Shown here: in pieces, positions 19,939-39,791 of the stretch
Position numbering within the stretch: position 1 is the first letter of the stretch
How the letters are laid out: each line of letters begins with the position of its first letter
Assembly: GCA_029974015.1 (NCBI GenBank)
Contig: JARKUF010000014.1
Span: 217 to 64,216, forward strand
Length of the DNA: 64,000 nucleotides
Reading direction: 5' to 3'
Source of the DNA: Spirochaetota bacterium
GTDB lineage: Bacteria > Spirochaetota > UBA4802 > JAGODF01
Translations under genes and position numbers: made by a program
The notes under the pieces: generated by a model
Told to the model about the DNA's origin: nothing
Databases searched by the model: none
The model's input: only the letters and a program-made list of their open reading frames with translations

Positions 19939-19956
19939 CTGGTCGGATAATTTACC

Positions 19957-21174
19957 TTGGAGGAAAATATGAGAGAAGCGTATATAGTAACTTCAGTAAG
20001 AACTCCTGGTTGCAGAAGAAACAAGGGCGCTTTCGCACACACCCGTCCCGAGGACCTTCTTGTAACAGCACTTAACGGCCTTATGGAAAGGTCCAAGGGA
20101 GTTGAAAAGGGAGCCATAGAAGATATAATGATCGGTTGTGCTTTCCCGGAAGCCGAACAGGGGCTGAATATAGGCCGTGTGGCCGCACAGATCGCAAAAT
20201 TTCCCGACAGCGTGTGCGGCGCCACTGTCAACAGGTTCTGCTCCTCCGGCCTTGAAGCGATCGCGCTCCAGGCCATGAGGATCAAATGCGGCTGGTGCGA
20301 CGTTGCCATCGGCGGCGGCCTCGAGTCGATGACGATCGTTCCCATGGGCGGAAACATGCCCAGACCCCATCCCGAGTGGGCGATGGAAAACCCCGACGTC
20401 TACATCTCCATGGGCATCACAGCGGAGAACGTTGCGAAAAGGTACAACATCACCCGGGAGATGCAGGACGAGTTCGCCTACCATTCAAACATGAAGGCGG
20501 CAGCGGCGCAGGAGAAGGGCCTCTACACTGAAATCGTTCCCACTCCCGCCGTATCGTACAAGATGAAAGACGGGAAATACGTGAAAGAAATCAAGATGCA
20601 GGATTTTGATGATGGGGTCCGTAAGGAGACCACGATTGAAGGGCTCAAGAAGTTAAGGCCCGCCTTCGCCTCCACCGGCTCCGTTACCGCCGGCAACTCT
20701 TCCCAGACCACTGACGGCGCCGCTGCGACGCTTCTTATGAGCGAAGATGCGGTGAAGAAGTACGGCGTGAAGCCCATAGCCAAGCTGGTAGCATACACCG
20801 TTGCTGGTTGCAGGGCCGATGAAATGGGTGTAGGTCCTGCCTACGCTGTTCCGAAGCTCCTCAAGATGGTGGGCCTTAAGGCCACCGACATTGGGCTTTA
20901 CGAGCTGAATGAAGCCTTCGCTTCCCAGTGCATTTACAGCGCACAGCAAATCGGCATTGCCGACAGGAAGAACTGGGCCTCCGACAGCGACTCCAGGATA
21001 ATCAACGTCAACGGCGGCGCCATTGCACTCGGACATCCCCTGGGATGCACCGGCGCAAAATTGGCGTCACAGCTCATGACGATGATGCAGAAGAAAGGAG
21101 CCAAGTACGGCATAGAGTCTATGTGCATAGGCGGCGGCATGGGTGCCGCGGCGCTCTTCGAGCTCTGCGAGTAA
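19957..21174 (+). CDS. fadA: Acetyl-CoA C-acyltransferase (thiolase)
   Basis: 405 aa. Thiolase motifs VNRFCSSGLEAI (active-site Cys), NEAFASQ and GHPLGCTGA. 18 nt downstream of the FadN-like gene. Confidence 0.9.
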   Translation: MEENMREAYIVTSVRTPGCRRNKGAFAHTRPEDLLVTALNGLMERSKGVEKGAIEDIMIGCAFPEAEQGLNIGRVAAQIAKFPDSVCGATVNRFCSSGLEAIALQAMRIKCGWCDVAIGGGLESMTIVPMGGNMPRPHPEWAMENPDVYISMGITAENVAKRYNITREMQDEFAYHSNMKAAAAQEKGLYTEIVPTPAVSYKMKDGKYVKEIKMQDFDDGVRKETTIEGLKKLRPAFASTGSVTAGNSSQTTDGAAATLLMSEDAVKKYGVKPIAKLVAYTVAGCRADEMGVGPAYAVPKLLKMVGLKATDIGLYELNEAFASQCIYSAQQIGIADRKNWASDSDSRIINVNGGAIALGHPLGCTGAKLASQLMTMMQKKGAKYGIESMCIGGGMGAAALFELCE

Positions 21175-25109: not shown

Positions 25110-26330
25110 ATGGCGACAATCAAAGAATTCAAGGGCCTAAGGCCTAAACAGGGCATGGAAGAGAAGGTGGCGGAGCTACCCTACGATGTGATAAGCTCCG
25201 ACGAAGCCAGGAAGATTGCGGAACGTAATGAGTTCAGTTTTTTTCATATAACAAAACCGGAAGTAGATCTTCCTGCCGGCTTGGATATTTACGATGACAG
25301 GGTATACGCCAAAGGGAAGGAGAACCTTGAAAGATTCATCTCCAACGGCACACTGCGCCGTGATGACTCGAACAATCTGTATCTATACTCGCTTGTCATG
25401 GAGGGACGCCTCCAGACCGGCCTCGTGGCCTGCGTTAGTATCGACGATTATCTTAAAGACATCGTTAAGAAACACGAGCTTACAAGGAAAGACAAGGAAC
25501 TCGACAGAACCAACCATATCGACCGTCTGGGGGCCCAGGCCGGTCTCGTATTCCTACTCTACGAGGAAGACGGTTCCAGGGCGGGGCTCATCGAAAAAGC
25601 CATGGCGGAAAAACCGGTGAACGATTTTACGACTTCCGACGGGATTCGTCATACGGTCCGCGTGATACACGACCCGGCGCTCATTCAAGCTCTGAAGAAA
25701 TCATTTGCCGGGACCACTCTCTACATCGCAGACGGCCACCACAGGGCAGCGTCTTCTGTCACGGTGGGTTTGAAGCGGCGTGAATCCGCAGGCGGAGAAA
25801 ACGGCGAGCATGGGTATTTCATCGCCGCGCTTTTCCCACATAATGAACTTACCATCCTTGCCTACAACAGGGTGGTACGTGATCTGAATGGTCTTGACGC
25901 TGATGGATTCATCAATGCCGTAAAAAAACGTTTCACGTGCAAAATAACAGGGAAAGATATGCCTGCGGCTAAACACGATGTCAGCATGTATCTAAATGGA
26001 GAATGGTACACCCTTACGCCCAACTTCCCCATACCGAACGACCCGATTGCGTCCCTGGACGTAAAAATTTTGCAGGATAATATCCTCAATCCGATTCTCG
26101 GCATAAATGATCCAAGGACGAGTACGCGCATTGACTTCATAGGAGGGATTAAAGGAACAGGCGAGTTGAAGAAACTCGTCGATAAAGGGGATTTTACCGT
26201 TGCATTTTCAATGTATCCCACTTCCGTTTTGGATCTTATTTCGGTATCGGATTCGGGGGGGATAATGCCGCCGAAATCGACCTGGTTTGAACCGAAATTG
26301 AGGAGCGGGCTCATTATCCATGAAATATAG
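25110..26330 (+). CDS. DUF1015 family protein
   Basis: 406 aa with the characteristic LYIADGHHRAASS motif. Confidence 0.75.
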   Translation: MATIKEFKGLRPKQGMEEKVAELPYDVISSDEARKIAERNEFSFFHITKPEVDLPAGLDIYDDRVYAKGKENLERFISNGTLRRDDSNNLYLYSLVMEGRLQTGLVACVSIDDYLKDIVKKHELTRKDKELDRTNHIDRLGAQAGLVFLLYEEDGSRAGLIEKAMAEKPVNDFTTSDGIRHTVRVIHDPALIQALKKSFAGTTLYIADGHHRAASSVTVGLKRRESAGGENGEHGYFIAALFPHNELTILAYNRVVRDLNGLDADGFINAVKKRFTCKITGKDMPAAKHDVSMYLNGEWYTLTPNFPIPNDPIASLDVKILQDNILNPILGINDPRTSTRIDFIGGIKGTGELKKLVDKGDFTVAFSMYPTSVLDLISVSDSGGIMPPKSTWFEPKLRSGLIIHEI

Positions 26331-26371
26331 CGGATGAAGAAATGGTTGGTGCTGCAATCGGCGGGATAACT

Positions 26372-26444
<73 letters not shown>

Positions 26445-26562
26445 GCACTTGAGTAACGTTACATTGTTTAAGAGGGCGCTATTTGTCAATATTTTTTTAC
26501 AATTTCAAATTCAATGCCCAAATAGAGGTGCAAAATCCTCTTAAAATAAATCGGGAGGAGGC

Positions 26563-26886
26563 ATGGATATAAGTGCAGACAACAGCCGCTTGAAAAAAGA
26601 AAACGACCTTCTACAGCATGAACTCGAAAACTGCAGAAAAATGATACTCGGATTTGAAAAAGTCCTCAAATTGACTGAGAAAGAAATTCTTAACGCCGAA
26701 GAAATTATCAAGATGTACGAAAACATCGTGGAATTCGCCCGCAATGAGCTTATTCTGGCAACAGAAACTGTGAAAGCGCAGGAAAGCGCATCGTATTTAA
26801 GCCGACAGGAGCTAATGAACGCCCTGTCCAGGATAAGGGAACTAGAAGAGCAGAACAGGAAATATAGAGTACTGAAAGGTAAATAA
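26563..26886 (+). CDS. Small coiled-coil protein
   Basis: 107 aa, heptad-rich (LKKENDLLQHELENCRKMILGFEKVLKLTEKEIL...). RBS GGAGG upstream. First gene beyond tRNA-Ala. Confidence 0.5.
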   Translation: MDISADNSRLKKENDLLQHELENCRKMILGFEKVLKLTEKEILNAEEIIKMYENIVEFARNELILATETVKAQESASYLSRQELMNALSRIRELEEQNRKYRVLKGK

Positions 26887-26997
26887 ATACCTTTCAAAGG
26901 AAATAATTTTGTACGATAATATTATTACCTGAATTGCCAGAATCAGTGATATACTACGTTCTATCGATACGGAATTTTCATTTTGGGTTAAGATTGT

Positions 26998-28356
26998 ATG
27001 TTAATTACATATGTATTTGTTTTCGTTATACTTATAATTGTGACGATTTTTGTCCTCTATATCCTGTCAACATATGTTTTTCCCAGGAAAATTGAGGAAA
27101 TCGCACGCATGGTGGAAAACGGGCAGACGAAACTTGCTATAAAGAAACTTATGGAGTTAATAGAGAAGGATGACCGGAACGCTTATGCCCGCTACCTTCT
27201 TGCCGAAGCCTATTTTAAAGAAAATAACATACAATACGCAATTCTCGAATACCGCCAGGTACTGAAGCTCGCAAAATTCGACGACAAAGTCAATGAAATC
27301 AAGATCAGGTCAAAATTGGCCAAAATATACATGGATCGAAAATCAATCGACGAGGCCAGGAAGGAATATTTGATACTGTCAAAAATTGATCCGATGAACT
27401 TCCAGCATTTTTACGAGCTGGGTCTCATTTATTTCAACGCGGACCAACACGAAAAGGCCACGCCATATTTCAAAAAATCAGTCGCATTGAACAATAATCA
27501 CGCCATGTCGCTCTACTTCCTCGGCCAGATATACTATCGGATGAACCTCTACCAGGATGCAAAGCAGATGTTTCTTGAGGCAATTAAAGTTGATCATGCG
27601 AATTACCGCTCCCATTATTTTTTAGGTTTGGTTCTTCGCCAGCTTGGCGATTATGAGTGGGCCATTAAGGAATTCGAAGTGGCCCAAAAAGACGACGATA
27701 TAAAGATTAAATGCTTCCTTGCCAAAGGAACGTGCTTCATTGAGAAGGAGCTGTATCCCAAGGCCATCATCGAGTTTGAACGGGGCCTGAAATTTGCGAA
27801 GAGGGGAAGCGACACGGAATTGAACCTCAGATACTTCCTTGCCGAGGCACAGGAAAAGATGCGTGATCTCCACTCGGCAATATCCAACTGGGAAAAGATC
27901 CATGAGGTGAACAAAAATTTCCGTGATGTACAGGAGAAGCTGAAATCGTATTCGGAATTCCGCCAGGATGACCGGATAAAGGATTTCATGATAGCTGGAC
28001 TTGCCCAGTTTGAACATCTAACCAGGAAAATCGTTGAAACAATGGGGCTCACCATTCTGGATATTGACATTATCAGCGACACCGACATAGAAATTATTGC
28101 GACCGAAACCGAAGGGAAATGGCGGAACACAAGAAAGACCAACAGAATAATAAGGATCATCCGCACTACGGACACTATATCCGACAAGCTGCTAAGATCC
28201 ATTCATGAAACGATGAAACCGAAAAATGCAACACGCGCCGTGATTATTTCCACCGGCGAATACAGCCAGACTGCCGTGGAATTCTCCAACACAAGGCCCA
28301 TCGAGCTTATGAGTAAAAACGAGCTTATAAAGCTTTTGAAACATGTTGGCGCCTGA
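26998..28356 (+). CDS. TM-anchored TPR protein with C-terminal Mrr_cat-like (restriction endonuclease fold) domain
   Basis: 452 aa. N-terminal TM helix, about 7 TPR-like repeats, and a C-terminal segment FEHLTRKIVETMGLTILDIDIISDTDIEIIATE...RIIRIIRTTD...RAVIISTGEYSQTAVEFS...IELMSKNELIKLL that aligns to the Mrr_cat pattern. AT-rich codon usage. Confidence 0.6.
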   Translation: MLITYVFVFVILIIVTIFVLYILSTYVFPRKIEEIARMVENGQTKLAIKKLMELIEKDDRNAYARYLLAEAYFKENNIQYAILEYRQVLKLAKFDDKVNEIKIRSKLAKIYMDRKSIDEARKEYLILSKIDPMNFQHFYELGLIYFNADQHEKATPYFKKSVALNNNHAMSLYFLGQIYYRMNLYQDAKQMFLEAIKVDHANYRSHYFLGLVLRQLGDYEWAIKEFEVAQKDDDIKIKCFLAKGTCFIEKELYPKAIIEFERGLKFAKRGSDTELNLRYFLAEAQEKMRDLHSAISNWEKIHEVNKNFRDVQEKLKSYSEFRQDDRIKDFMIAGLAQFEHLTRKIVETMGLTILDIDIISDTDIEIIATETEGKWRNTRKTNRIIRIIRTTDTISDKLLRSIHETMKPKNATRAVIISTGEYSQTAVEFSNTRPIELMSKNELIKLLKHVGA

Positions 28357-28368
28357 TATTTCCGCCAG

Positions 28369-30186
28369 ATGGATTCATTTTACTACATTTTTGATTCGAT
28401 TCCACTTCTGAAACATTTCAATGAGAAAGAACGCTCTTTTCTTGCCGCACTGGGAAGAATTTCCAGGGTAAAAACCAACCAGATAATTGATTTAAAAAAA
28501 ATCAGCGCCTTAAACGTCATTCTGGAAGGAGTGTTTGAACTTGAGGTTTTTGGGAAAAAAGAATACATCTATCTCACGCCCGGGTCTTTTTTTGGCGACT
28601 ACCCATTCACGGACATAAAAAACCGAGGAACCATCAAGGCCGTTTCCGAAGCACGCCTTTTGCAATTCAACACAGAAGATCTCTATAAGTTCTTTTTCAC
28701 GAATTACCGGGCACTGAGGGGGTATATCCGCTCTCTGGAAAACCTCGGCATGGACCTTTCTTCTGCCAGCGCTTCCCACTTTAAAAGAAGAACAAAGATT
28801 GTTACTGTGTTCGGGACGGGGAACCGAGAAGGCAAATCCCTCTTTGCCGCTTCCCTTGCGCTTACTTTGGCGGAAAGGGGGGCAACAATTCTTCTGGATA
28901 TGTCATACGGCGGAGAATCCGTGTACACATTCTTCGAAAAAAGGCCCCCTGCTCCCCTCTCCCAGAAACAGGAAGAAAGCGATGCAAATGAGCAATTCAT
29001 AGTAGAACGCCTTGAACATGCCGCGGCAGGCCTCGATCTTCTAAATGTTCTCCATGGCTCCAATGTAAAGGCCAGTCCATCCATTCTTTCCCCGCTGCTC
29101 TTTCTGCTTTCGAAAAGCTATAAATACATCATTGTAGATCTTTCCAACAGTGACGGAGAAATAAGGGACCGCGTTTTTGAGGAATCGCATATCATACTGG
29201 GTCTAGTGACAAGAATGAAAAACCGCGATGACCTTTCAGCCATCTTTAATGACAGTATCTCCAACGGACAGCGGGTGTACTATCTGCTTAATACACACTT
29301 TCATGACAAGACCGTTTTTGAAGGCGGTTTCAGATGGGAATCAATCGGCCCGAATGAAGGAACCGATTCGAATTTTTCATTCGATGCCATGAAGGAGAGC
29401 GTACCGAAAGAAATTCCTACAATAATCTCTTCTCCAGTAAAGGCGCTTGTACTTGAAGCGAACGGGCTTGACGCCTGGGCATACGCAGGCCTTTACGACG
29501 AAATTCTCAATACCGGAGTTTTATTCGATATTCATTACTGCTCGTCCTTTGCCTTCCTGTTCCTTTTTGCGTTCTTAACCTCACAAAATGCAGATGAGTA
29601 TAAGAAAACGATAAAGAGGTTCTATCCCTGGGAGAAGATCAACGAGTTACTTGACATTACATTTCCCAAAAATGTCCTGTTTAAGAGCGCAAAGATCGCC
29701 AGATTCGCGACTGAATTGGCAAAAGACGCCAGGTTGGAATATTTTCCGGCAAGGGCCCTGCTTCTTGCTTCAAGTAAGGATTTTTCACGAAGAATCTTCA
29801 GCACCGGAAATATGGAAGAATTAATTCAAGTGTCGATGTCGGCATATCCTTTCTTCGAAGCGGGGAGAATAGGGAACGGGAAGTATATCTCCGGGTATCC
29901 TTTTACTGTCTGTAGCGTCGAAGACATCATGCCGCTGGATGTGGATACGGTCGCGGCCGTATCGGTCAAACCTCGAATCGACCATCCCGGAGCATCCGGA
30001 ATTCTCCCAATATTTTTGCATCATCATGAATATTTCGATTCCCGTGAAAAACGGCCTTTCTCTTCCCCCGGCAGGACAGCCCGACTTGAACTTGAATGGG
30101 GCGAAGATGAAAAAGACCCCGAAAAAATCCTAGAAATTGTAAGAACAAGCACTAATAAATTCTTGAAAGAAAACCGCTTTATATAA
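28369..30186 (+). CDS. Three-domain protein: cNMP-binding-like + ParA/MinD-like P-loop + patatin-like, each with non-canonical motifs
   Basis: 605 aa. The N-terminus fits the CRP/cNMP beta-barrel pattern (IPLLKHFNEKERSFLA...ILEGVFELEVFGKKEYIYLTPGSFFGD...IKAVSEARLL). The middle is KIVTVFGTGNREGKSLFAASLALTLAERGATILLDMSYGG (deviant Walker A). The C-terminus is ALVLEANGLDAWAYAGLYDEILNTGVLFDIHYCSSFAFL, a patatin-like layout with GGxRG and GxSxG altered. Confidence 0.5.
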   Translation: MDSFYYIFDSIPLLKHFNEKERSFLAALGRISRVKTNQIIDLKKISALNVILEGVFELEVFGKKEYIYLTPGSFFGDYPFTDIKNRGTIKAVSEARLLQFNTEDLYKFFFTNYRALRGYIRSLENLGMDLSSASASHFKRRTKIVTVFGTGNREGKSLFAASLALTLAERGATILLDMSYGGESVYTFFEKRPPAPLSQKQEESDANEQFIVERLEHAAAGLDLLNVLHGSNVKASPSILSPLLFLLSKSYKYIIVDLSNSDGEIRDRVFEESHIILGLVTRMKNRDDLSAIFNDSISNGQRVYYLLNTHFHDKTVFEGGFRWESIGPNEGTDSNFSFDAMKESVPKEIPTIISSPVKALVLEANGLDAWAYAGLYDEILNTGVLFDIHYCSSFAFLFLFAFLTSQNADEYKKTIKRFYPWEKINELLDITFPKNVLFKSAKIARFATELAKDARLEYFPARALLLASSKDFSRRIFSTGNMEELIQVSMSAYPFFEAGRIGNGKYISGYPFTVCSVEDIMPLDVDTVAAVSVKPRIDHPGASGILPIFLHHHEYFDSREKRPFSSPGRTARLELEWGEDEKDPEKILEIVRTSTNKFLKENRFI

Positions 30187-30233
30187 TAACTATCCGTAAG
30201 CCACGTCTAACTTGAGAGGGGGAATGGCATACA

Positions 30234-30680
30234 ATGAGATCGCGAAAAACGAATTTTCTTCAAGCGGTCGTTCTGTTAACTGGGGTTCTGTACATACTCT
30301 CCGGCGGTATATTCTCACTCTCCCCCCATCTATTTGCAGATATATTCTCCATCGATATCAATGAAGACTGGTTTAAAGAAATTCCTAGAGAGCCGTTCAT
30401 GTTCATGATGATTGCAATTTCCCGATCATTTGGCCTGCTTTTATTTACGATGGGGATTGCTATGGTACTCCCTCTCTTCGATCCCCTGCGTTATCGAGGC
30501 CTTGTTTATTTCACCGGTATTCTTTTTCCGTCCGGAGCGGCGTTTCTTTGCGCCATAAGCTGTTTGACAAACCCCCTTGGCGTTCTCATCATTTATGCGT
30601 CCCTATTTGTTCTCATAGCAGTTGCGACAATCGCCGGGCTTTTTATAACCAAAGGCACGGTAAAAACAGGCGTAGAGTGA
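30234..30680 (+). CDS. Small integral membrane protein (4 predicted TM helices)
   Basis: 148 aa, hydrophobic throughout. Confidence 0.5.
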   Translation: MRSRKTNFLQAVVLLTGVLYILSGGIFSLSPHLFADIFSIDINEDWFKEIPREPFMFMMIAISRSFGLLLFTMGIAMVLPLFDPLRYRGLVYFTGILFPSGAAFLCAISCLTNPLGVLIIYASLFVLIAVATIAGLFITKGTVKTGVE

Positions 30681-30773
30681 TACCTTTGGGTCTAAGGCCA
30701 GGCGCAAAGCGCGATGCCAATTTTTTTTTTTGATTGATTTATTAACCCTCTTTTCTATAATGTGATTAGATTA

Positions 30774-30893
30774 TGGTAGCCTCAAAAATTTAATTTTTGA
30801 GGCTACCATAAATTGTAACTACTGGCATACTCAGGACTCAGGTTTTCCCGCCCCCCGAAGGCGGGCGGGAAAACCTGATTATTAGAAGTTGCC
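30774..30893. repeat. Modular hairpin repeat (copy R10, complete)
   Basis: tggtagcctcaaaaatttaatttttgaggctacca (palindrome) + taaattgtaactactggcatactcaggactcagg + ttttcccgccccccGAAGgcgggcgggaaaacc + tgattattagaagttgcc. Confidence 0.9.
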
Positions 30894-30982
30894 TTATGTA
30901 AATGTTTCGTTATTATTTTTTAGGTCTTATAAAAAAACATCCGTTTGAGCTGTAAAATCGATTTTCTACTCGGAGGAAATAA

Positions 30983-31318
30983 ATGGAATTGAAAACGAAG
31001 AAAAACAACAATGTGATAATTATATATCTCGCCGGGCGACTGGATGTACATCTTTCCGCTGACGTTGAAAAAGAAATCAATAAAATTATCAATGATGATC
31101 CCGCAAGCCATCTCCTGCTTAATTTACATGATGTCGAGTATATGAACAGTTCCGGGCTTCGCATCTTTGTATCAACGATGAGGATACTTAAAGAATCCAA
31201 AAGAAAACTTTTTCTCTGCAATATGAACAGTGCGGTGAAAAAAATTTTTGAAGTTGTCGAACTAATGGACATGTTTGACATTTTTGAATCTGAAGAAGAA
31301 GCGCTGAGGTCATTTTAA
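30983..31318 (+). CDS. STAS domain protein (anti-sigma factor antagonist, SpoIIAA-like)
   Basis: 111 aa. VIIIYLAGRLDVHLSADVEKEINKII...DVEYMNSSGLRIFVSTMRILKESKRKLFLCNMNSAVKKIFEVVEL is a typical STAS alpha/beta pattern with a phosphorylatable Ser in the SSGL motif. Confidence 0.75.
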   Translation: MELKTKKNNNVIIIYLAGRLDVHLSADVEKEINKIINDDPASHLLLNLHDVEYMNSSGLRIFVSTMRILKESKRKLFLCNMNSAVKKIFEVVELMDMFDIFESEEEALRSF

Positions 31319-31338
31319 CAGGCCTGTGAATACGCGAA

Positions 31339-33609
31339 TTGAAACTCGGCTGGAAAAAATTAATAACGAAGAAGCGTCCTCCGGCCCTTATGCCCCTGCA
31401 AACCATCGGTGCTTTACCTGATGCGTCGAAGACCGGGGGGGTGGAAAAAACCATCTCCCTTGGCCTAAAAAACTACTTGCTATTCCAGTCATATCACCAT
31501 TATCGCTGGCCCCTCTGGCTAATTTCATCAATAGATGAATTAGAACGCCACTTCAGGCCTGTAACCCCCCCGATTCTCCTGAACACGTATTATCGAGACT
31601 GGATGTACTTTACCAGCATCCTTTCATCACACAGGATTATGATAGACCATGCAGGCATGCTTACACCGACGAATGCGCCATGGTCAATTGAACTGTGGGT
31701 GCTTAACGGCAACAGGGTTTTCAGGCCGCAGGACGACTGCAATTCTATTATACAGGTCAGGGATCCCCATACTTCCCTAATAACTACGAAGTGGACCAAT
31801 AGAGACTTTACACTTCACATGGAAATGTATGGAACAAGAACTTCCATCGATGAAGCAATAGCAGACATAAGTTTTTCCACCGTTGGAAAGGCCGGGGGAA
31901 CATCACTTGTCGTGGCGGTGCGACCCTATGGAACAGAGCAGATCGGAGGGCTCCACTCCCTGGAATATCAGTCTGAAAATAAGACTGTCCGTATTAACAA
32001 TGAGACTACTTTTTATGTTAGCCACAGTCCCAGTGAAGTCTTCACGGGTAGTGGAATGTACGGAGATGTAAATTTCAGGGAAAAACAGGGAAAAGTATCT
32101 TGTTTCGACGGTATGGCTTCCATGGCCCTCGTGTATCCAGTAAAGAAAGAACTCCTGGAACTTAAAGTTAGACTTAGCCTCTCAGAAAAAAAATCCGTAG
32201 AATCGTTGAAGCTTAATTATATTTCCGTAAAGAAAGATTTTGCCGAATATCTTGACGTTATGAAACGGCAGGGTTTCATTCTTTCCATCGGAGACAAACG
32301 GCTTTCTAACTGGTTCGTCAATACAAAACTTATCTCGCTTGGAAACGTTAACCGCATGATACGCCTTCTTGGCGATAAATGCGGCGTCATAGAAGCGAGG
32401 GAATCATTTTATCTGGTAAAAGCCCTGTCGAGGATGGGATTCGACAAGGAAGCACGTCTGATCGTTGACGCATGGAGGACAAGCATTCACATTTCGGAGC
32501 GTACAGAATTTGATGATCTAATTATCTTCTGCTACTTCTTATCCTCTTTCGCCGACAGTTACCTTTTTACACGGGACACAGCTTACCTTCAAGACAACTA
32601 TGAATTTATTAAGAAGCTTGCCCATGCAGCACTGTCAGCGGGAAAGGACCTGTTTCAAAAGAAGAAAAAAAAGGCCGCACATAATTCCCTTCCATACGTG
32701 TACGCGGGGCGATACCATCTGCACGATACCCTGCTATATGCCCATACGCTTTCGCAATACGCTTACCTCTGCAGAACGATAGGGCTTTTTGGAGACGAAA
32801 TAAAGTTCTCCAGGGAGGCCGAAAGATATCACGAGATGTTATCCTATGAAATAACAGGTCTTATTGCCTCTGCGGCGGCGGAATCACCCTTAGATTCCGA
32901 TGCATTTTCAGGTATTCACGGACTTGACGAATTTATTGTGTATCTTTCATTCTGCGTCTCCCCTTTTGCGGTTGACTCGATCAAGCGCGAAGAGAAGAAG
33001 AAACTCCTTTCAATGATCAGCGCAGTGTATAAAAAGAAACCACTTTTCCTGCGTTCTTTCGGGGGATGGGATATTTTTCTTACAATTATGTTCGCTCGGA
33101 ATACGCTTCTCATGAATGATGCCGCATCCCAAGATATTATTGAGTTTTTTCTAAACATCGGGGAGCCAAGATATTCCCTTCCGGACTGCATCCATCCGGT
33201 GAGTCTGAGGGGAATCGGCGGAACCGGCGAATCTTCTATGGTGAACAGCTCTATATTCCTTTTTCTAAGAAACCTTATCCTCATTGACGGACCGAACCGT
33301 TTGGAGATTTTCCCGGTTCCGAAAGAAGAGTGGTTTCGGCCGGGAGCTGAGATAGTGGTGGAGAACGCGCCCTCGCGGTTTGGAAAGATTCATTTTAAAG
33401 TCATTTCGACCCAGAATGAAATACAGATGTATTTTACAGAACTGCCCAAGTACGTGCCTCCGGATATCATGATACATCTCCCGTACAAAACCGAGTTGAA
33501 AGAAGGAGATGATTTCATGCTGAAAAAAGAGGAAGGGTTTTCCTATATAATTAATGGATGGCCGTCTGTTATAAGGTTCGTCCGGACAGGGCAAGAAAAG
33601 AATTCATGA
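31339..33609 (+). CDS. Large hypothetical protein (possible beta-sandwich + alpha/alpha-toroid glycosidase-like fold)
   Basis: 756-aa ORF. No confident family. An N-terminal beta-rich region and a C-terminal helical region are reminiscent of GH15/GH63/debranching-enzyme-like proteins, but no catalytic motif was recognised. AT-rich. Confidence 0.45.
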   Translation: MKLGWKKLITKKRPPALMPLQTIGALPDASKTGGVEKTISLGLKNYLLFQSYHHYRWPLWLISSIDELERHFRPVTPPILLNTYYRDWMYFTSILSSHRIMIDHAGMLTPTNAPWSIELWVLNGNRVFRPQDDCNSIIQVRDPHTSLITTKWTNRDFTLHMEMYGTRTSIDEAIADISFSTVGKAGGTSLVVAVRPYGTEQIGGLHSLEYQSENKTVRINNETTFYVSHSPSEVFTGSGMYGDVNFREKQGKVSCFDGMASMALVYPVKKELLELKVRLSLSEKKSVESLKLNYISVKKDFAEYLDVMKRQGFILSIGDKRLSNWFVNTKLISLGNVNRMIRLLGDKCGVIEARESFYLVKALSRMGFDKEARLIVDAWRTSIHISERTEFDDLIIFCYFLSSFADSYLFTRDTAYLQDNYEFIKKLAHAALSAGKDLFQKKKKKAAHNSLPYVYAGRYHLHDTLLYAHTLSQYAYLCRTIGLFGDEIKFSREAERYHEMLSYEITGLIASAAAESPLDSDAFSGIHGLDEFIVYLSFCVSPFAVDSIKREEKKKLLSMISAVYKKKPLFLRSFGGWDIFLTIMFARNTLLMNDAASQDIIEFFLNIGEPRYSLPDCIHPVSLRGIGGTGESSMVNSSIFLFLRNLILIDGPNRLEIFPVPKEEWFRPGAEIVVENAPSRFGKIHFKVISTQNEIQMYFTELPKYVPPDIMIHLPYKTELKEGDDFMLKKEEGFSYIINGWPSVIRFVRTGQEKNS

Positions 33610-35174
33610 TACTTTATCTTCTCATATTTTCCGTTCTGGTTTCCGGGATTTTTCTTTATTACACATATTATATATCTCCACGCCTTAATCCAGTAAAAAA
33701 GGCGGAAAAATATCTGAAAAACGAACAGCATAATGAAGCAGTATTGGAATACAAGAAGGCGCTTGACCGTAATGGCGCTGATTTCGTGGTACATTTCAGG
33801 CTCGCGAATATCTACCTGCAGCAGAAAGAAATCGACCAGGCCGTACTGCACCTGGAAAAAATCCTGGACTTGAACGCATTCAATTACGAAGTGGAAAAGC
33901 TTGATGTTCAGAAAAAACTGGCCTCCGCATATCAGGTTCGCGACGAACCCGAAAAGGCATTCCAGATGTATTATGACATCCTGAGATACTACCCGGTGGA
34001 TCAGGAAGCATTGTATAATGTGACGTTCATGGCCCTCGGACAGGAAGAGTTCGAAATAGCACAGCGTTACGCAGAAAAACTCGTCAATCTCATGCCCAAT
34101 AGTTTTGAAGTCGTTTTTGCCGCCGGCATGTGTAATTACCAGAACAAGAGGATTAATGACGCATCGAGTTACTTCAAGACGGCCGCCGCACTGAAACCCG
34201 GTTCCGACATAGCAAACCTTGCTGCGGCCTTGACCCTGCAGAAAAAGGGGGATTACAGACTCGCCCTTTCATATGTCCAAAAAATCCCGGAAAACGATAA
34301 CGATCCAGGTGTGATTTTTATTTCTAGAAGGCTCCAGGGAATCATTCTCCTTCAGGGGCGTAAGCACGATGAAGCAATAAAAATCTTTGAGGAGCTTCTA
34401 AATTTCGCCAAAACAAATGAAATGCAGGAAGAGGTTCTATTGGTCCTGTACGATATCGGCTTCGTCGCAGCGAAAGCGGAAAGGACAAACCAGGCCTACG
34501 AATACTGGAACGAGCTTTACAGGCTCGATAAGTCGTACAAAAAAATCCAATCTCTGGTGATGATGCTCAGGAAGGAAATGGAGTTGGATTACAGAACAGC
34601 AATGGAAGAACCGCAGTCTTCGCTTGACGATTACACGGAGGCCTGGCTCGAAGAAATATTTCCCGCAGATTTTCTCTGGAATATCTGTGGTTTGAAGAGC
34701 GACAGGAAATTGAACCTGAAAGGAATAATGACTACGGCCCGTGTGCAGACAGCCCACGGGGACGAAAGTGGCCTGGAGCTCGGTTCGGGAGCAAATTTCG
34801 AGAAGTTAGAACGGTTCAATACGATGAATGTGGAAAATTTCAGAATAGCCTCAAACAGACTCGTCGCTAAGATGGGGTATAAGGTGGAACAAATACTCCA
34901 AACATACCGAGAAAACGACGGTGTCGACTTTCTTGCCGTCTCCCCTGAAAAGGAAAAAACCCTGATCTGGGTGAGGAGATGGACCAAGGCGAGGGTCGGA
35001 GAAATTCCTTTTAGAAATTTTGCCCAGGCTATAAATGACATAAAGGCGAAAAAGGGCGTTTTTGTAACATCCTCGGAAATAACCGAGGCGGCTGAAATTA
35101 GCCTTAAGAACCTCTCTAAGGTGGTTGTCGTTCAGCCCGATGAACTCGCCTCGCTTCTGGAGGGGCTGGTGTGA
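33606..35174 (+). CDS. TM-anchored TPR protein with C-terminal Mrr_cat-like domain (paralog of 26998..28356)
   Basis: Start chosen at the ATG overlapping the upstream stop (ATGA at 33606-33609); the longer 33558 ORF start is less likely. N-terminal TM helix, TPR repeats, and a C-terminus FEKLERF...RLVAKMGYKVEQILQTYRENDGVDFLAV...LIWVRRWTKARVGEIPFRNFAQAINDIKAKKGVFVTSSEITEAAE...VVVVQPDELASLL that is closely Mrr_cat-like. Confidence 0.65.
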   Translation: MILYLLIFSVLVSGIFLYYTYYISPRLNPVKKAEKYLKNEQHNEAVLEYKKALDRNGADFVVHFRLANIYLQQKEIDQAVLHLEKILDLNAFNYEVEKLDVQKKLASAYQVRDEPEKAFQMYYDILRYYPVDQEALYNVTFMALGQEEFEIAQRYAEKLVNLMPNSFEVVFAAGMCNYQNKRINDASSYFKTAAALKPGSDIANLAAALTLQKKGDYRLALSYVQKIPENDNDPGVIFISRRLQGIILLQGRKHDEAIKIFEELLNFAKTNEMQEEVLLVLYDIGFVAAKAERTNQAYEYWNELYRLDKSYKKIQSLVMMLRKEMELDYRTAMEEPQSSLDDYTEAWLEEIFPADFLWNICGLKSDRKLNLKGIMTTARVQTAHGDESGLELGSGANFEKLERFNTMNVENFRIASNRLVAKMGYKVEQILQTYRENDGVDFLAVSPEKEKTLIWVRRWTKARVGEIPFRNFAQAINDIKAKKGVFVTSSEITEAAEISLKNLSKVVVVQPDELASLLEGLV

Positions 35175-36121
35175 ACCCCGCCATGCAGGCCCTGCCAGTG
35201 GAAAACATCAACGTTTCCCACATAGATTTTACAGATAACCGCTACAAAATCAGCAAACCCGAAATCAGCGATCAGCTTATGCGGTCGATTAAGACCCATG
35301 GCCTTCTGGAGTTTCCCGTGCTTCTTCCTCAGTATGAAAAATACATCGTTGTTGGAGGGCATAATAGACTTGTAGCCGCAAAAAATACCGGTGCGTCCAC
35401 AGTCCCTTGCAGGATTATGGACCCCTTCGACATGGGAACCTTTCTCGGCCATGCGGTCCTGAAAATTGACCGAGGTGAGGTTGGACCTATCGGGCGCCTT
35501 AAGCTTTACAACCTGCTGAAAAAAACGAAAACTGAAGCGATTCAAAACGATCGGTTGTTTGCAAGAAGGGAATTAGGCATACCCGATTTCCTGCTTGGCG
35601 ACGAAGCAGCCATAGAAACGATATTATCCATTCCTGATACAATTGCCTTCTATGCGGACTCCAGGGATGTGCACTACAGGGTTTTGCGTGAAATTGGCGG
35701 TATGTCAAGTGCCGCCGTGTCGTTGCTCTCTTCCTGGCTCGACCAAATACCAATGAGGGTTAATATCTTCAGAGAGGTCGTCGAAATGTTGTCGGAAATA
35801 TCACGTCGTGACGGATCCATTGAAACGGCTTCGGCGATTAAAATACCGGATATCCGCGACCCCAGAGGACGCGAGAACAGCCTTCATTCATCGTTGATGT
35901 CACTTCGGTGTCCACGCTACACGGTTTTAAAGGAAGAGGCCGATAATCTTATTGCGAAGCTGAGGGCCGTGGGAATCGAAGTAACTTTCCCGAATTATTT
36001 CGAAGGCGATACAATTGGCCTTACAGTAAAGGTTTCGAAAAAGGACGGCCCGGCCGTAGTTCGGGATACATTTACACGGGCGGATGAGGAGACTTTAGGC
36101 AAGTTGCTGGATTTGCTGTGA
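35171..36121 (+). CDS. ParB-like nuclease (ParBc) domain protein
   Basis: 316 aa (GTG start; alternative ATG at 35183). ParB N-terminal-domain pattern IDFTDNRYKISKPEISDQLMRSIKTHGLLEFPVLL...YIVVGGHNRLVAAKNTG. The C-terminal 200 aa are unassigned. Confidence 0.6.
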   Translation: MNPAMQALPVENINVSHIDFTDNRYKISKPEISDQLMRSIKTHGLLEFPVLLPQYEKYIVVGGHNRLVAAKNTGASTVPCRIMDPFDMGTFLGHAVLKIDRGEVGPIGRLKLYNLLKKTKTEAIQNDRLFARRELGIPDFLLGDEAAIETILSIPDTIAFYADSRDVHYRVLREIGGMSSAAVSLLSSWLDQIPMRVNIFREVVEMLSEISRRDGSIETASAIKIPDIRDPRGRENSLHSSLMSLRCPRYTVLKEEADNLIAKLRAVGIEVTFPNYFEGDTIGLTVKVSKKDGPAVVRDTFTRADEETLGKLLDLL

Positions 36122-38288: not shown

Positions 38289-39791
38289 TTAGTGGATTTC
38301 CTGGGATTGGACTTCATACGCCTGCTTCAGCATATTGTGCAGGGCCATGAATTCTTCGCGGCGTGCAATTTGAAAATACTCTAAAACGTCTTCGTCGAGC
38401 ACCTCGTATTTAATTCTGTTCATCTCTATGTCCAGGAGGACCGTGGAAAGATATACTATGTATATCAGGTCGCGGTATTGTTCAGGGGCCAAATGCGGTC
38501 TCTTATGATACTCAATTGTATTGACCAGGGCCTCGTTAAAACCCCACTTTTTCAGTATCATGCTTCCCAGGGTGCTGTGGCTGATGCCAAGGCTCATTTC
38601 CTCAAGGACCCCCGAGTCACCGATGCCTTTTATGCCCACGAGGCCCTTTATTTTCTCCGAAATTTCAGGCTTGATGGACAGAATTACAAGCCTGCCGATT
38701 TCCGACAGGAGGGCGGCAAGATACACGAATTCGACGAGCCTCACTTTTTTATATTGGATGGCGATGCGCTGGGAGTAAAAAGCCGCCCTGTGGGAATGTT
38801 TCCACATTGCCTCGAACTTTTTATAGCGTGATTCCATTATCTTCTGGACCCCGCTTGCCACAATGAGGGTGTTGATCCCTTTCATCCCGATTTTCAACAC
38901 CGCTTCCTCTATGGTCTCAACCCTGTTGATGGTCATGTAACCGGCTGAGTTTGCGATTTTCAGTATGTTTGTAGTCAAACCCGGATCGCGTTTTATACGA
39001 TCGGATATCTCTTTTATTTTTGTTTCAGGATTGAAACAAAGCCTCTGAATTTCCTTGATGTGGGCCGGAAAAGAAGGGAGGCTTTCAATTTCATTCGTTA
39101 TTTCGCCGGCCACAAGCGTTTGTCGTTCCTTGAGGATATGGTCGACAGGAATGGTGACGGTGGCAACGGTAAGCTTCTCACGGCGCATAATTTTGACCGG
39201 ATTAGCCGGGAAACCGGAGTTTTTAAAAAGCATGGTGGCCACGATTAGGCCGAGGCCGGCCCCCTCGGAATCATCCAGGGCGTCGTCGAAGGCTTCGTAG
39301 ATATTGTTGTAGGTATTTGCTTGTTTTATCCGTGCGTTTATTTTTTGAAGCTCGACATCCAGGATGGGAGAATTGTTGATCACATGGATGATGAAATTAC
39401 CGTTGCGGAAGATGAAGGAGGCCCTGACAACCAGCTTGGCCGTTGCGAGCCCGTCAAAGTCGACCAACCGCTTCTCATAGGCCTCCTCCTTAAATTTTTT
39501 CATGCCGAGCTTATAGCTTTCCCGATCATTGATATCGAGTTTCTTCTCGAAAAAATAGAGCCGTTTCATGTTGGCCTTGACGGCATTATTGACCAACTCC
39601 CTGAGAACAGTTAGGAGAATGTCTTTTATGTAGAGGATGTCGTACTGTTCAAGAAAACGGTGAAGTATTTTCGTCAGGAGCGATTCGACTTCGGGGGTTA
39701 CATGGTAAAATTGGAGATAGACGTCCATCCCTTCCTTGATGGATTCCCGGTAAGAAGGTGGATTGATTATAAACGATTCCCTTTTATTCAC
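38289..39791 (-). CDS. HDOD domain signalling protein with N-terminal GHKL-ATPase-like region
   Basis: 500 aa. N-terminal LRELVNNAVKAN ... EGAGLGLIVATMLF (HATPase-like N and G boxes). C-terminal HDOD pattern (LPSFPAHIKEIQRLCFNPETKIKEISDRIKRDPGLTTNILKIANSAGY...). Confidence 0.65.
   Translation of the reverse strand: MNKRESFIINPPSYRESIKEGMDVYLQFYHVTPEVESLLTKILHRFLEQYDILYIKDILLTVLRELVNNAVKANMKRLYFFEKKLDINDRESYKLGMKKFKEEAYEKRLVDFDGLATAKLVVRASFIFRNGNFIIHVINNSPILDVELQKINARIKQANTYNNIYEAFDDALDDSEGAGLGLIVATMLFKNSGFPANPVKIMRREKLTVATVTIPVDHILKERQTLVAGEITNEIESLPSFPAHIKEIQRLCFNPETKIKEISDRIKRDPGLTTNILKIANSAGYMTINRVETIEEAVLKIGMKGINTLIVASGVQKIMESRYKKFEAMWKHSHRAAFYSQRIAIQYKKVRLVEFVYLAALLSEIGRLVILSIKPEISEKIKGLVGIKGIGDSGVLEEMSLGISHSTLGSMILKKWGFNEALVNTIEYHKRPHLAPEQYRDLIYIVYLSTVLLDIEMNRIKYEVLDEDVLEYFQIARREEFMALHNMLKQAYEVQSQEIH

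Follow-up and report, generated by a model that had tools for sequence, protein, structure and literature searches.

A three-domain protein of uncultured Spirochaetota with cNMP-binding-like, MinD/ParA-like and patatin-like folds as a probable non-catalytic relative of regulated phospholipases

Introduction

Can a protein whose three recognizable folds have all lost their canonical motifs still be a maintained gene product, and which role might be left to it? This question is raised by a gene for a 605-amino acid (aa) protein located at positions 28369..30186 (+) of a contig fragment from a Spirochaetota bacterium (assembly GCA_029974015.1, contig JARKUF010000014.1; the complete stretch of 64,000 nucleotides analyzed is referred to as the window). 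An earlier description of the locus, referred to as the original prediction, assigned to this protein a cyclic nucleotide monophosphate (cNMP)-binding-like, a ParA/MinD-like and a patatin-like domain with degenerate motifs throughout and proposed either a regulatory pseudo-enzyme scaffold or a divergent effector of an island system. In this study, family-wide sequence comparison, structure prediction and synteny analysis were combined. The results obtained indicate that the 605-aa protein is, with good probability, a non-catalytic descendant of a lipase family, members of which with an intact catalytic site were also identified.

Results and Discussion

The 605-aa protein is a member of a conserved family

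The open reading frame (ORF) opens with ATG at position 28369, comprises 605 uninterrupted codons and closes with a stop codon ending at position 30186; the opposite strand is stop-rich and contains no ORF of like size. The ORF itself corresponded to its earlier description, and all motif strings quoted for it were found at the places given. An identical copy of the protein is encoded in the metagenome-assembled genome GCA_033811455.1 (contig JAPXOM010000010.1). In addition, 89 orthologues of 598–623 aa were recovered by homologue search, showing 29–53% identity to the 605-aa protein over its full length. Wherever the source name specifies a taxon, these originate from Spirochaetes/Spirochaetota, one record being named just ‘bacterium’. 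In public databases, members are labeled as hypothetical, ‘cyclic nucleotide-binding domain-containing’ or ‘patatin-like phospholipase’ proteins.

Searched alone against Pfam, the 605-aa protein matched cNMP_binding with E=2.6e-4 (21.3 bits compared to a gathering cut-off of 27.5) and ParA with E=0.25; a Patatin match was absent from this Pfam search even at E≤10. Comparison of the single protein with NCBIfam and with PDB sequences returned only hints of E~0.003–0.1 to ParA-type ATPases. Since the single-sequence searches remained below threshold, family profiles were needed. When 81 family members were searched singly against Pfam, cNMP_binding was found in 69/81 and Patatin in 30/81 proteins (counted at E≤0.01; best E=2.6e-10), followed by ParA (13/81), AAA_31 (8/81) and CbiA (8/81). 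Moreover, a profile built from 89 sequences matched the Borrelia protein PF-32 (E=1.7e-8), PlpD (E=1.2e-4) and the cGMP-binding domain 5h5o (E=1.8e-3) among PDB sequences. The AlphaFold2 model calculated from the 89-sequence alignment reached a mean predicted local distance difference test value (pLDDT) of 88.2 and a predicted template modeling score (pTM) of 0.91, and by the latter value the three domains are predicted to pack as a single rigid body. Structure prediction, Foldseek comparison, family-profile searches and Pfam matches of family members agree in placing all three domain assignments above noise, and low complexity of the corresponding regions was not found.

Within the family alignment, 17 positions are invariant and approximately 45 are nearly so. 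Among these are the PGSFFGxxPF motif, G155, D177, D257, F432-P433, R455, E457 and an FSTG motif. Judged from this pattern, purifying selection is acting on non-canonical residues of the family. The alternative that the gene is decaying or represents an annotation artefact takes up the degeneration of all canonical motifs and the Pfam scores of the protein itself, which stay below threshold. It is refuted by the conservation observed, given that a frame of about 600 aa is intact in approximately 140 sequence clusters with 17 invariant positions, that the structure prediction is confident and that the gene holds a fixed operon position, so that its probability is regarded as negligible.

The patatin-like domain lacks the catalytic apparatus kept in a sister family

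The C-terminal domain (residues ~355–605; 29431..30183, +) adopts a patatin fold according to Foldseek comparison of the model, with PlpD (5fya) as match at E=8.8e-9 and a TM-score on target of 0.70; further matches were CapE, CapV and potato patatin. Its identity is further supported by the Pfam matches of family members and by hhalign. Structural patatin motifs are kept, e.g., block III (A-S-x-x-x-P-x-F).

Screening of 1.84 billion cluster representatives with the family profile by means of HMMER, which is based on hidden Markov models (HMMs), yielded 2,095 proteins at E≤0.001, of which 243 reached E≤1e-10 and 81 reached E≤1e-30. Among these, a second group of proteins featuring 640–700 aa was found, which were matched over nearly the entire profile and possess the same domain order. 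Alignment of the ~600-aa family to 55 aligned proteins of this group by hhalign resulted in a probability of 100 and E=1.3e-47 over 604 columns. The patatin site of the longer proteins is intact: GxGxxG is kept, and the Ser of GSSxG and the Asp of DGG are present in 53/55 and 54/55 sequences, respectively. Sequence comparison shows this intact family to be either the ancestor of the ~600-aa family, termed dead in the following with regard to its lipase site, or of common origin with it.

The register of the patatin motifs in the 605-aa protein was determined by HMM alignment to PlpD and by hhalign against the intact family. As had been claimed before, the oxyanion loop (GGxRG/GxGxxG) is lost in the region of EANGLDAW (residues 363–370); it maps to E363-A-N-G-L-D-A369, where no column of conserved Gly exists among the 89 sequences. 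The string YCSSF (residues 390–394), previously put in place of GTSxG, lies one residue out of register, because GxSxG maps to C391-S392-S393-F394-A395. The flanking Gly positions are occupied by small residues, with Gly seldom at position 391. The 605-aa protein itself carries Ser at the nucleophile position 393; of the 89 sequences, 62 have Ser at this position, 21 Ala, three Gly, two Phe and one Cys. Residue S392 (Ser in 86 and Thr in three of the 89) was also considered as nucleophile and rejected, as both registers point to position 393 and the intact family likewise features a Ser preceding its nucleophile (GSSxG). Finally, DGG maps to S508-G509-Y510. Asp, Glu and His were each found in 0/89 sequences at position 508, which is Ser in 77, Asn in five, Ala in four and Thr, Pro and Cys in one sequence each. 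Accordingly, the family has the patatin fold and lacks the Gly-rich loop, a conserved nucleophile Ser and the Asp of DG[GA], and the 605-aa protein does not reach the Pfam gathering score.

These observations also bear on the possibility that the protein has remained a hydrolase, or an acyltransferase, by using a non-canonical site, in which S393 would act together with, for instance, S392, S508 or other subfamily-specific residues like R455 and E457 under control of the two N-terminal domains. Near-invariance of S392, Ser at position 508 in 77/89 sequences, presence of S393 in the 605-aa protein and retention of structural patatin motifs (block III and the F, P and G positions) would fit such an enzyme. 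However, Ala, Gly, Phe or Cys at the nucleophile position in 27/89 sequences are incompatible with conserved catalysis, no sequence offers Asp, Glu or His at the dyad position, the oxyanion loop is devoid of conserved Gly, and S392, being Ser in the intact family too, is explained as an inherited non-catalytic residue. An active enzyme of this kind is therefore considered improbable.

The middle domain resembles MinD/ParA proteins with a degenerate deviant Walker A motif

Residues ~140–325 (28786..29343, +) correspond to a MinD/ParA-like domain, for which Foldseek retrieved Borrelia PF-32 (3k9g; E=1.5e-6, TM-score on target 0.60); the family profile additionally matched ParA 3ea0 (E=2.4e-3). 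The P-loop aligns without gaps to IKGGVGKS of PF-32, with T150-G151-N152-R153-E154-G155-K156-S157 representing x-K-G-G-x-G-K-S. The topology and the missing signature Lys described earlier were thus both confirmed, and only the proposed extra residue turned out to be wrong: the string GTGNREGKS covers residues 149–157, and the additional residue appeared because counting had started at G149, out of register.

The 89 orthologues vary at the signature-Lys position 151 as well as at positions 152 and 153 of the GG pair, and the pattern xKGGxGK[ST] is absent. The core of the P-loop is largely kept, with G155 and S/T157 in 89/89 and K156 in 68/89 sequences; in the remaining 21/89, K156 is replaced by Asn (11), Thr (6), Arg (2) or Val (2). 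Both the first Asp of Walker A' (D177) and that of Walker B (D257) occur in 89/89 sequences, and the second Asp of the DxD motif is replaced by Ser (S179) in 83/89. ParA/MinD proteins require their signature Lys to form the sandwich dimer with ATP. Their second DxD Asp corresponds to D40 of MinD and D44 of Soj, the replacement of which (D40A, D44A) stops hydrolysis. Since the signature Lys is gone and the second DxD Asp is Ser, ParA-type ATPase cycling appears very unlikely for the 605-aa protein.

The N-terminal domain is a cNMP-binding-like barrel with an altered cassette

The N-terminal domain (residues ~1–125; 28369..28743, +) forms the eight-stranded beta-barrel with flanking helices that characterizes cyclic nucleotide-binding domains (CNBDs). 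Foldseek comparison with the PDB identified MlotiK1 (1u12; TM-score 0.78, rmsd 2.5 Å) and furthermore HCN, PKA-R and CRP structures, in line with the Pfam matches of the family. The predicted barrel of CRP/cNMP type was hence confirmed, as was the statement that its phosphate-binding cassette deviates from FGE...RSA. The cassette string FFGDYPFTDIKNRGTIKA covers residues 74–91. At position 77, which corresponds to the FGE Glu, residues vary (Thr 17, Phe 16, Asp 15 and others among 89), and at position 85, the counterpart of the R[ST]A Arg, an Arg occurs in 4/89 sequences. Moreover, the cassette of the family is two residues shorter than that of 5h5o, and the AlphaFold2 model lacks the cassette helix between residues 77 and 87. 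The protein accordingly fails in the cassette pattern FGE...R[ST]A as well as in the Pfam gathering score, and canonical cNMP binding is unlikely as judged from these replacements. The surrounding positions P71-G-S-F-F-G76-x-x-P79-F80...G87...A91 are near-invariant across the family, a degree of conservation suggesting that the altered loop does something else. Taking the three domains together, inspection of homologues revealed that loss of the canonical motifs extends over the whole orthologous family.

Loss of the lipase site followed older changes in the other two domains

Individual parts of the intact family resemble RssA in the patatin domain (NF007623, E~1e-44, below cut-off), archaeal MinD in the middle domain (E~1e-8) and CRP-type domains at the N-terminus. 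Its members include the Candidatus Omnitrophota protein MBN1793784.1 (P0207) and a protein named ‘NTE family protein’ by IMG (P0182). The P-loop is degenerate also in this family, with the Walker Lys in 18/55 and the Asp in 38/55 sequences, and the cassette Arg is replaced by His in 48/55. As the P-loop and cassette were already degenerate in the intact family, loss of the ATPase and cNMP motifs is regarded as old and loss of the lipase site as the newer step.

A motif table compiled for 201 full-length sequences showed a sharp switch between dead and intact states. In a midpoint-rooted neighbor-joining tree, which is crude, 136/143 dead sequences formed one clade without intact members. The remaining seven sequences (P0192, P0194, P0204, P0218, P0221, P0229 and P0235) are devoid of the patatin Asp and Ser and lie outside the main dead clade; four of them feature xxQGKS/xxKGWS at the former GxSxG site. 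These may represent independent losses or alignment artefacts.

The genomic context of two intact members was also inspected. The gene of P0168 (locus L063) is accompanied by genes encoding glycerol kinase and a glycerophosphodiesterase (GDPD) on one side and a 3-hydroxyacyl-CoA dehydrogenase, an enoyl-CoA hydratase, ETF and an AMP-binding (FadD-like) enzyme on the other side, and the gene of P0207 (L060) is followed by ETF genes. Based on gene context at these two loci, the intact family is suggested to represent a regulated phospholipase feeding beta-oxidation. The lipid-catabolism neighbors fit a working phospholipase in the intact family and an altered role in the dead one. Genes encoding PilZ-domain proteins were also observed in the vicinity.

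The gene is part of a vertically inherited operon

Synteny was evaluated for 53 loci from GTDB species representatives, all being Spirochaetota-type metagenome-assembled genomes and several of them ‘uncultured Leptospirales’, complemented by loci obtained through exact look-up. The gene order, which hardly changes between loci, comprises a gene for a protein with TPR and Mrr_cat-like domains (TPR-Mrr1), the 605-aa gene, a gene of ~150–190 aa, a STAS gene, a gene of ~740 aa, a second TPR and Mrr_cat-like gene (TPR-Mrr2) and a gene of ~310 aa. Upstream of the operon, greA, RseC or DUF1015 genes are located, and DHH and glyQ genes often follow downstream. TPR-Mrr1 adjoins the 605-aa gene in 53/53 scorable loci, with a median gap of 14 bp and gaps of 0–26 bp in 50/53, and the complete cluster was found in 35/37 loci that were long enough for evaluation. 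P0132 and P0155 (L061 and L062), which diverge most among the dead members inspected, are encoded in the same operon minus the ~740-aa gene. One single locus, L041 (7989–9809 and downstream), contains just TPR-Mrr1 and the 605-aa gene; downstream of these, the genes for the four-transmembrane (4-TM), STAS, GH15-like, TPR-Mrr2 and ParB-like proteins described below were not found, HMM searches included.

Because the same synteny beside housekeeping genes is maintained while the orthologues are only 29–53% identical, the operon is, on the basis of this comparison, vertically inherited. A mobile island was ruled out for the same reason, despite a GC content of 42–45% over positions 26000–34000 compared to ~50% in most of the window. 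The term ‘island system’ used in the original prediction, for which this dip may have been the source, is therefore not tenable: the region is a fixed operon next to greA, RseC or DUF1015 and, in some loci, glyQ.

An effector of anti-phage defense or of another conflict island, acting like CapV or CapE and accompanied by Mrr-like nucleases, was considered in this connection, the original prediction having named a divergent effector of the island system as one of its options. The patatin-like domain has CapE and CapV among its best structural matches, the flanking Mrr_cat proteins show weak PADLOC matches (mREase_IV, PDC-S02), and the GC content is lowered over 26–34 kb. However, the 605-aa protein matched no PADLOC-DB 2.0 model, neither a CD-NTase nor another nucleotide cyclase was recognized in the operon, the catalytic residues of the lipase are missing and the (E/Q)xK motif of Mrr is replaced in the flanking proteins. 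Above all, the constancy of the housekeeping-flanked synteny at the orthologue identities given above largely refutes this explanation, which is thus held to be very improbable.

Promoter and terminator scans gave results at the level of shuffled sequences, and an Rfam search over 24–38.5 kb identified nothing beyond one tRNA gene (26372–26444, −; 65 bits), located between the DUF1015 gene and the operon. Farther upstream, at 17512–21174 (+) and 7–11 kb from the 605-aa gene, a FadB-like fusion of 808 aa (3HCDH and enoyl-CoA hydratase) and a thiolase are encoded; this neighborhood is not kept in the other loci examined.

Products of the neighboring genes

TPR-Mrr1 (26998..28356, +; Pfam TPR, Mrr_cat E=6e-12) and TPR-Mrr2 (33606..35174, +; Mrr_cat E=5.7e-16, NA-iREase1 E=1.8e-7) both start with a hydrophobic helix. 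TPR-Mrr1 shows 60–90% identity across loci. For TPR-Mrr2, the consensus of orthologues begins at Met17 of the longest ORF, and the probable start codon ATG at 33606 overlaps the stop codon of the preceding gene; its NA-iREase1 match stands for the ‘NACHT-associated inactive REase’ family. In both proteins, the hydrophobic helix is followed by basic residues (PRK..., PRLNPVKK...), so that the TPR and C-terminal domains would be cytoplasmic according to the positive-inside rule. The stretch corresponding to (E/Q)xK, located by eye, reads IRIIRTT or WVRRW (IRIIRTT in TPR-Mrr1), and the two proteins are provisionally regarded as inactive restriction-endonuclease folds.

Immediately upstream of TPR-Mrr1, a heptad-rich, coiled-coil-like protein of 107 aa is encoded (26563..26886, +), for which no Pfam family is on record in public gene calls. 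The ORF is kept at the same position in L002, L005–L008, L014, L044, L061 and L062, appears as an annotated gene in L058 and may be part of the operon.

Downstream of the 605-aa gene, a protein of 148 aa with four hydrophobic stretches, probably a 4-TM protein, is encoded (30234..30680, +). It features the motif MPLFDPxxYRG, which is invariant in an alignment of 39 orthologues, and no Pfam, NCBIfam or PADLOC match was obtained for it. The following gene encodes a STAS protein of 111 aa (30983..31318, +) of the anti-sigma-factor-antagonist type (Pfam STAS E=1.7e-21, TIGR00377 E=2.4e-24), which is the most conserved member of the operon (71–93% identity across loci). Its NSSGL motif, which carries the phosphorylated Ser in SpoIIAA-type proteins, is kept. 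No kinase or phosphatase, be it a SpoIIAB-type kinase or a PP2C phosphatase, was recognizable in the operon. A 500-aa HDOD protein (38289–39791, −; HDOD E=1e-47) with a weak HATPase_c match (E=0.0065) is a possible candidate for a kinase-type partner of the STAS protein. HDOD proteins were also observed beyond glyQ in L001 and L061.

The ~739-aa protein (31390..33609, +) is GH15/GH94-like. Its start was placed at 31390 according to the public gene call of 739 aa, and not at TTG 31339, which would give a 756-aa ORF. The AlphaFold2 model, for which a shallow alignment was available (pLDDT 73), consists of a beta-sandwich, an (alpha/alpha)6 barrel and a further beta-sandwich, and by Foldseek it matched a glucoamylase of bacterial origin, 1lf6 (E=2.5e-12), and also cellobiose phosphorylases of family GH94 (E~1e-12). 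A homologue search using a 42-sequence alignment of this neighbor in its 756-aa form returned the same seven proteins again. Its absence from the otherwise syntenic loci L061 and L062 marks the gene as accessory to the operon and inserted in only part of the clade.

The last gene encodes a ParB/Srx-fold protein of 316 aa (35171..36121, +). Its family profile matched Myxococcus ParB 7o0n (E=1.1e-9) as well as Spo0J and Noc, and the protein itself matched Pfam ParB_N (E=4.2e-5) and, weakly, NCBIfam SerK (E=2.9e-7), SerK being a serine kinase of ParB/Srx fold. GHNR takes the place of the GERR arginine patch. One operon thus holds a ParA-like domain and a ParB-like protein, with nucleotide motifs altered in both.

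For this gene pair, a nucleotide-dependent switch was evaluated as the main alternative, in which the MinD/ParA-like domain would bind ATP or a different nucleoside triphosphate by means of G155-K156-S157, D177 and D257, form a divergent ParA–ParB-type pair with the ParB/Srx-like protein and position or assemble a membrane complex, with the dead lipase and CNBD folds serving as cargo or membrane adaptors. The ParB N-terminal-domain protein is a constant operon member, the partition protein PF-32 is the nearest relative of solved structure for the middle domain, and the P-loop core is better kept in the dead subfamily (K156 68/89, D177 89/89) than in the intact one (K 18/55, D 38/55). A switch is nevertheless rated as rather unlikely, since the signature Lys needed for sandwich-dimer ATPase activity is gone, the second DxD Asp is Ser in 83/89 sequences, 21/89 orthologues lack the Walker A Lys and the ParB-like protein possesses GHNR instead of GERR.

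Relation to known protein families

Regarding domain composition, the intact 640–700-aa CNBD–MinD-like–patatin proteins are closest to the 605-aa protein, sharing domains, domain order and the degenerate P-loop and cassette. They differ in having kept the patatin site, in being 40–90 residues longer and, in the two cases examined, in their lipid-catabolism context. NTE/PNPLA6, PNPLA7, Swiss-cheese and RssA-type patatins likewise possess one or more cNMP-binding domains N-terminal to the patatin domain. NTE/PNPLA-type and RssA-type proteins are active serine hydrolases without a MinD/ParA-like domain between sensor and lipase (PMC9025805, PMC5704489). In contrast, the 605-aa protein has lost the dyad and the oxyanion loop and contains a MinD/ParA-like domain at this place.

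With the ParA/MinD family, the closest solved member of which is PF-32 (3k9g), the middle domain shares fold and strand order, and no gaps are needed to align GK[ST], the first Asp of Walker A' and the Asp of Walker B. It differs from this family by the absence of the signature Lys and of GG, by replacement of the second DxD Asp with Ser, by loss of the Walker Lys in about a quarter of the sequences and by being embedded between two domains, whereas ParA/MinD proteins are free-standing.

The CapV and CapE proteins of cyclic-oligonucleotide-based anti-phage signaling systems (CBASS) share the patatin fold and the concept of a nucleotide-sensing module coupled to a patatin. CapV and CapE function as active lipases, which are triggered by the cyclic oligonucleotides that a neighboring CD-NTase produces (PMC12480259). 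Unlike these, the 605-aa protein offers no catalytic residues, no recognized cyclase in its vicinity, a different sensor fold and vertical inheritance. Based on its sequence features, it should be filed as a fold relative of patatins, CNBDs and ParA/MinD proteins and not as a functional member of any of these. In the way it is proposed to work, it comes closest to a pseudoenzyme member of the NTE/RssA-type CNBD–patatin proteins. Full-text literature searches returned no account of the CNBD–MinD-like–patatin architecture, of the dead spirochaete branch or of the operon.

Proposed role of the 605-aa protein

Considering all evidence, the 605-aa protein is proposed to be a non-catalytic adaptor or sensor that originated from a regulated phospholipase family and acts with operon-linked partners, a proposal to which, taken as a whole, slightly more than even confidence is given. 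The ancestral family would have consisted of regulated phospholipases composed of a CNBD, a MinD/ParA-like domain and an RssA/NTE-type patatin domain. In one uncultured Spirochaetota clade, several records of which are assigned to Leptospirales, the patatin Ser–Asp dyad and the oxyanion loop would have been lost, whereas the three folds would have been retained together with the rigid packing between them. The gene would have become fixed in an operon encoding proteins attached to the cytoplasmic side of the inner membrane or active there. In this setting, the protein is predicted to bind its translationally coupled TPR partner, possibly to read a lipid or another small ligand via the groove of the one-time lipase or via the changed nucleotide pockets, and to relay the ligand state to the STAS and ParB-like components.

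Descent from a lipase family accompanied by loss of catalysis is the probable part of this proposal, as stated at the outset; the identity of the specific partners, which was deduced from gene order, is held with far less confidence. Further points likewise weigh against the adaptor proposal. The absence of canonical residues is no proof that every activity has gone. The 605-aa protein has kept S393 and may thus support some serine chemistry, and with G155-K156-S157, D177 and D257 in place, plain nucleotide binding may also occur. That the TPR proteins and the 148-aa protein are anchored in the membrane was read from visible hydrophobic segments. Moreover, all orthologue sequences originate from metagenome-assembled genomes, and all members are known only from uncultured organisms.

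The pseudo-enzyme scaffold put forward as a possibility in the original prediction became more plausible through the intact sister family of the same domain order. A bolder version sees the 605-aa protein as the hub of a vertically inherited inner-membrane machine built almost entirely from inactivated enzyme folds, serving either as a sensor of lipid or envelope state that feeds a STAS-type partner switch or as a positioning device derived from ParA/ParB. Its parts would be the dead NTE-type lipase with its degenerate MinD domain and a ligand-blind CNBD, both TM-anchored TPR proteins with their inactive restriction-endonuclease folds, the ParB/Srx-fold protein carrying GHNR, the STAS protein and the 4-TM protein. 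This version is tentative and, on balance, doubtful.

Conclusions

Full-text searches returned no earlier description of the CNBD–MinD-like–patatin architecture or of the six- to seven-gene operon, which is fixed throughout a spirochaete clade and encodes membrane-anchored proteins, most of them apparently inactive. If the proposed descent is true, this family would represent a clean natural case of a multi-domain enzyme turned pseudoenzyme, for which an active, ancestor-like family is available for comparison.

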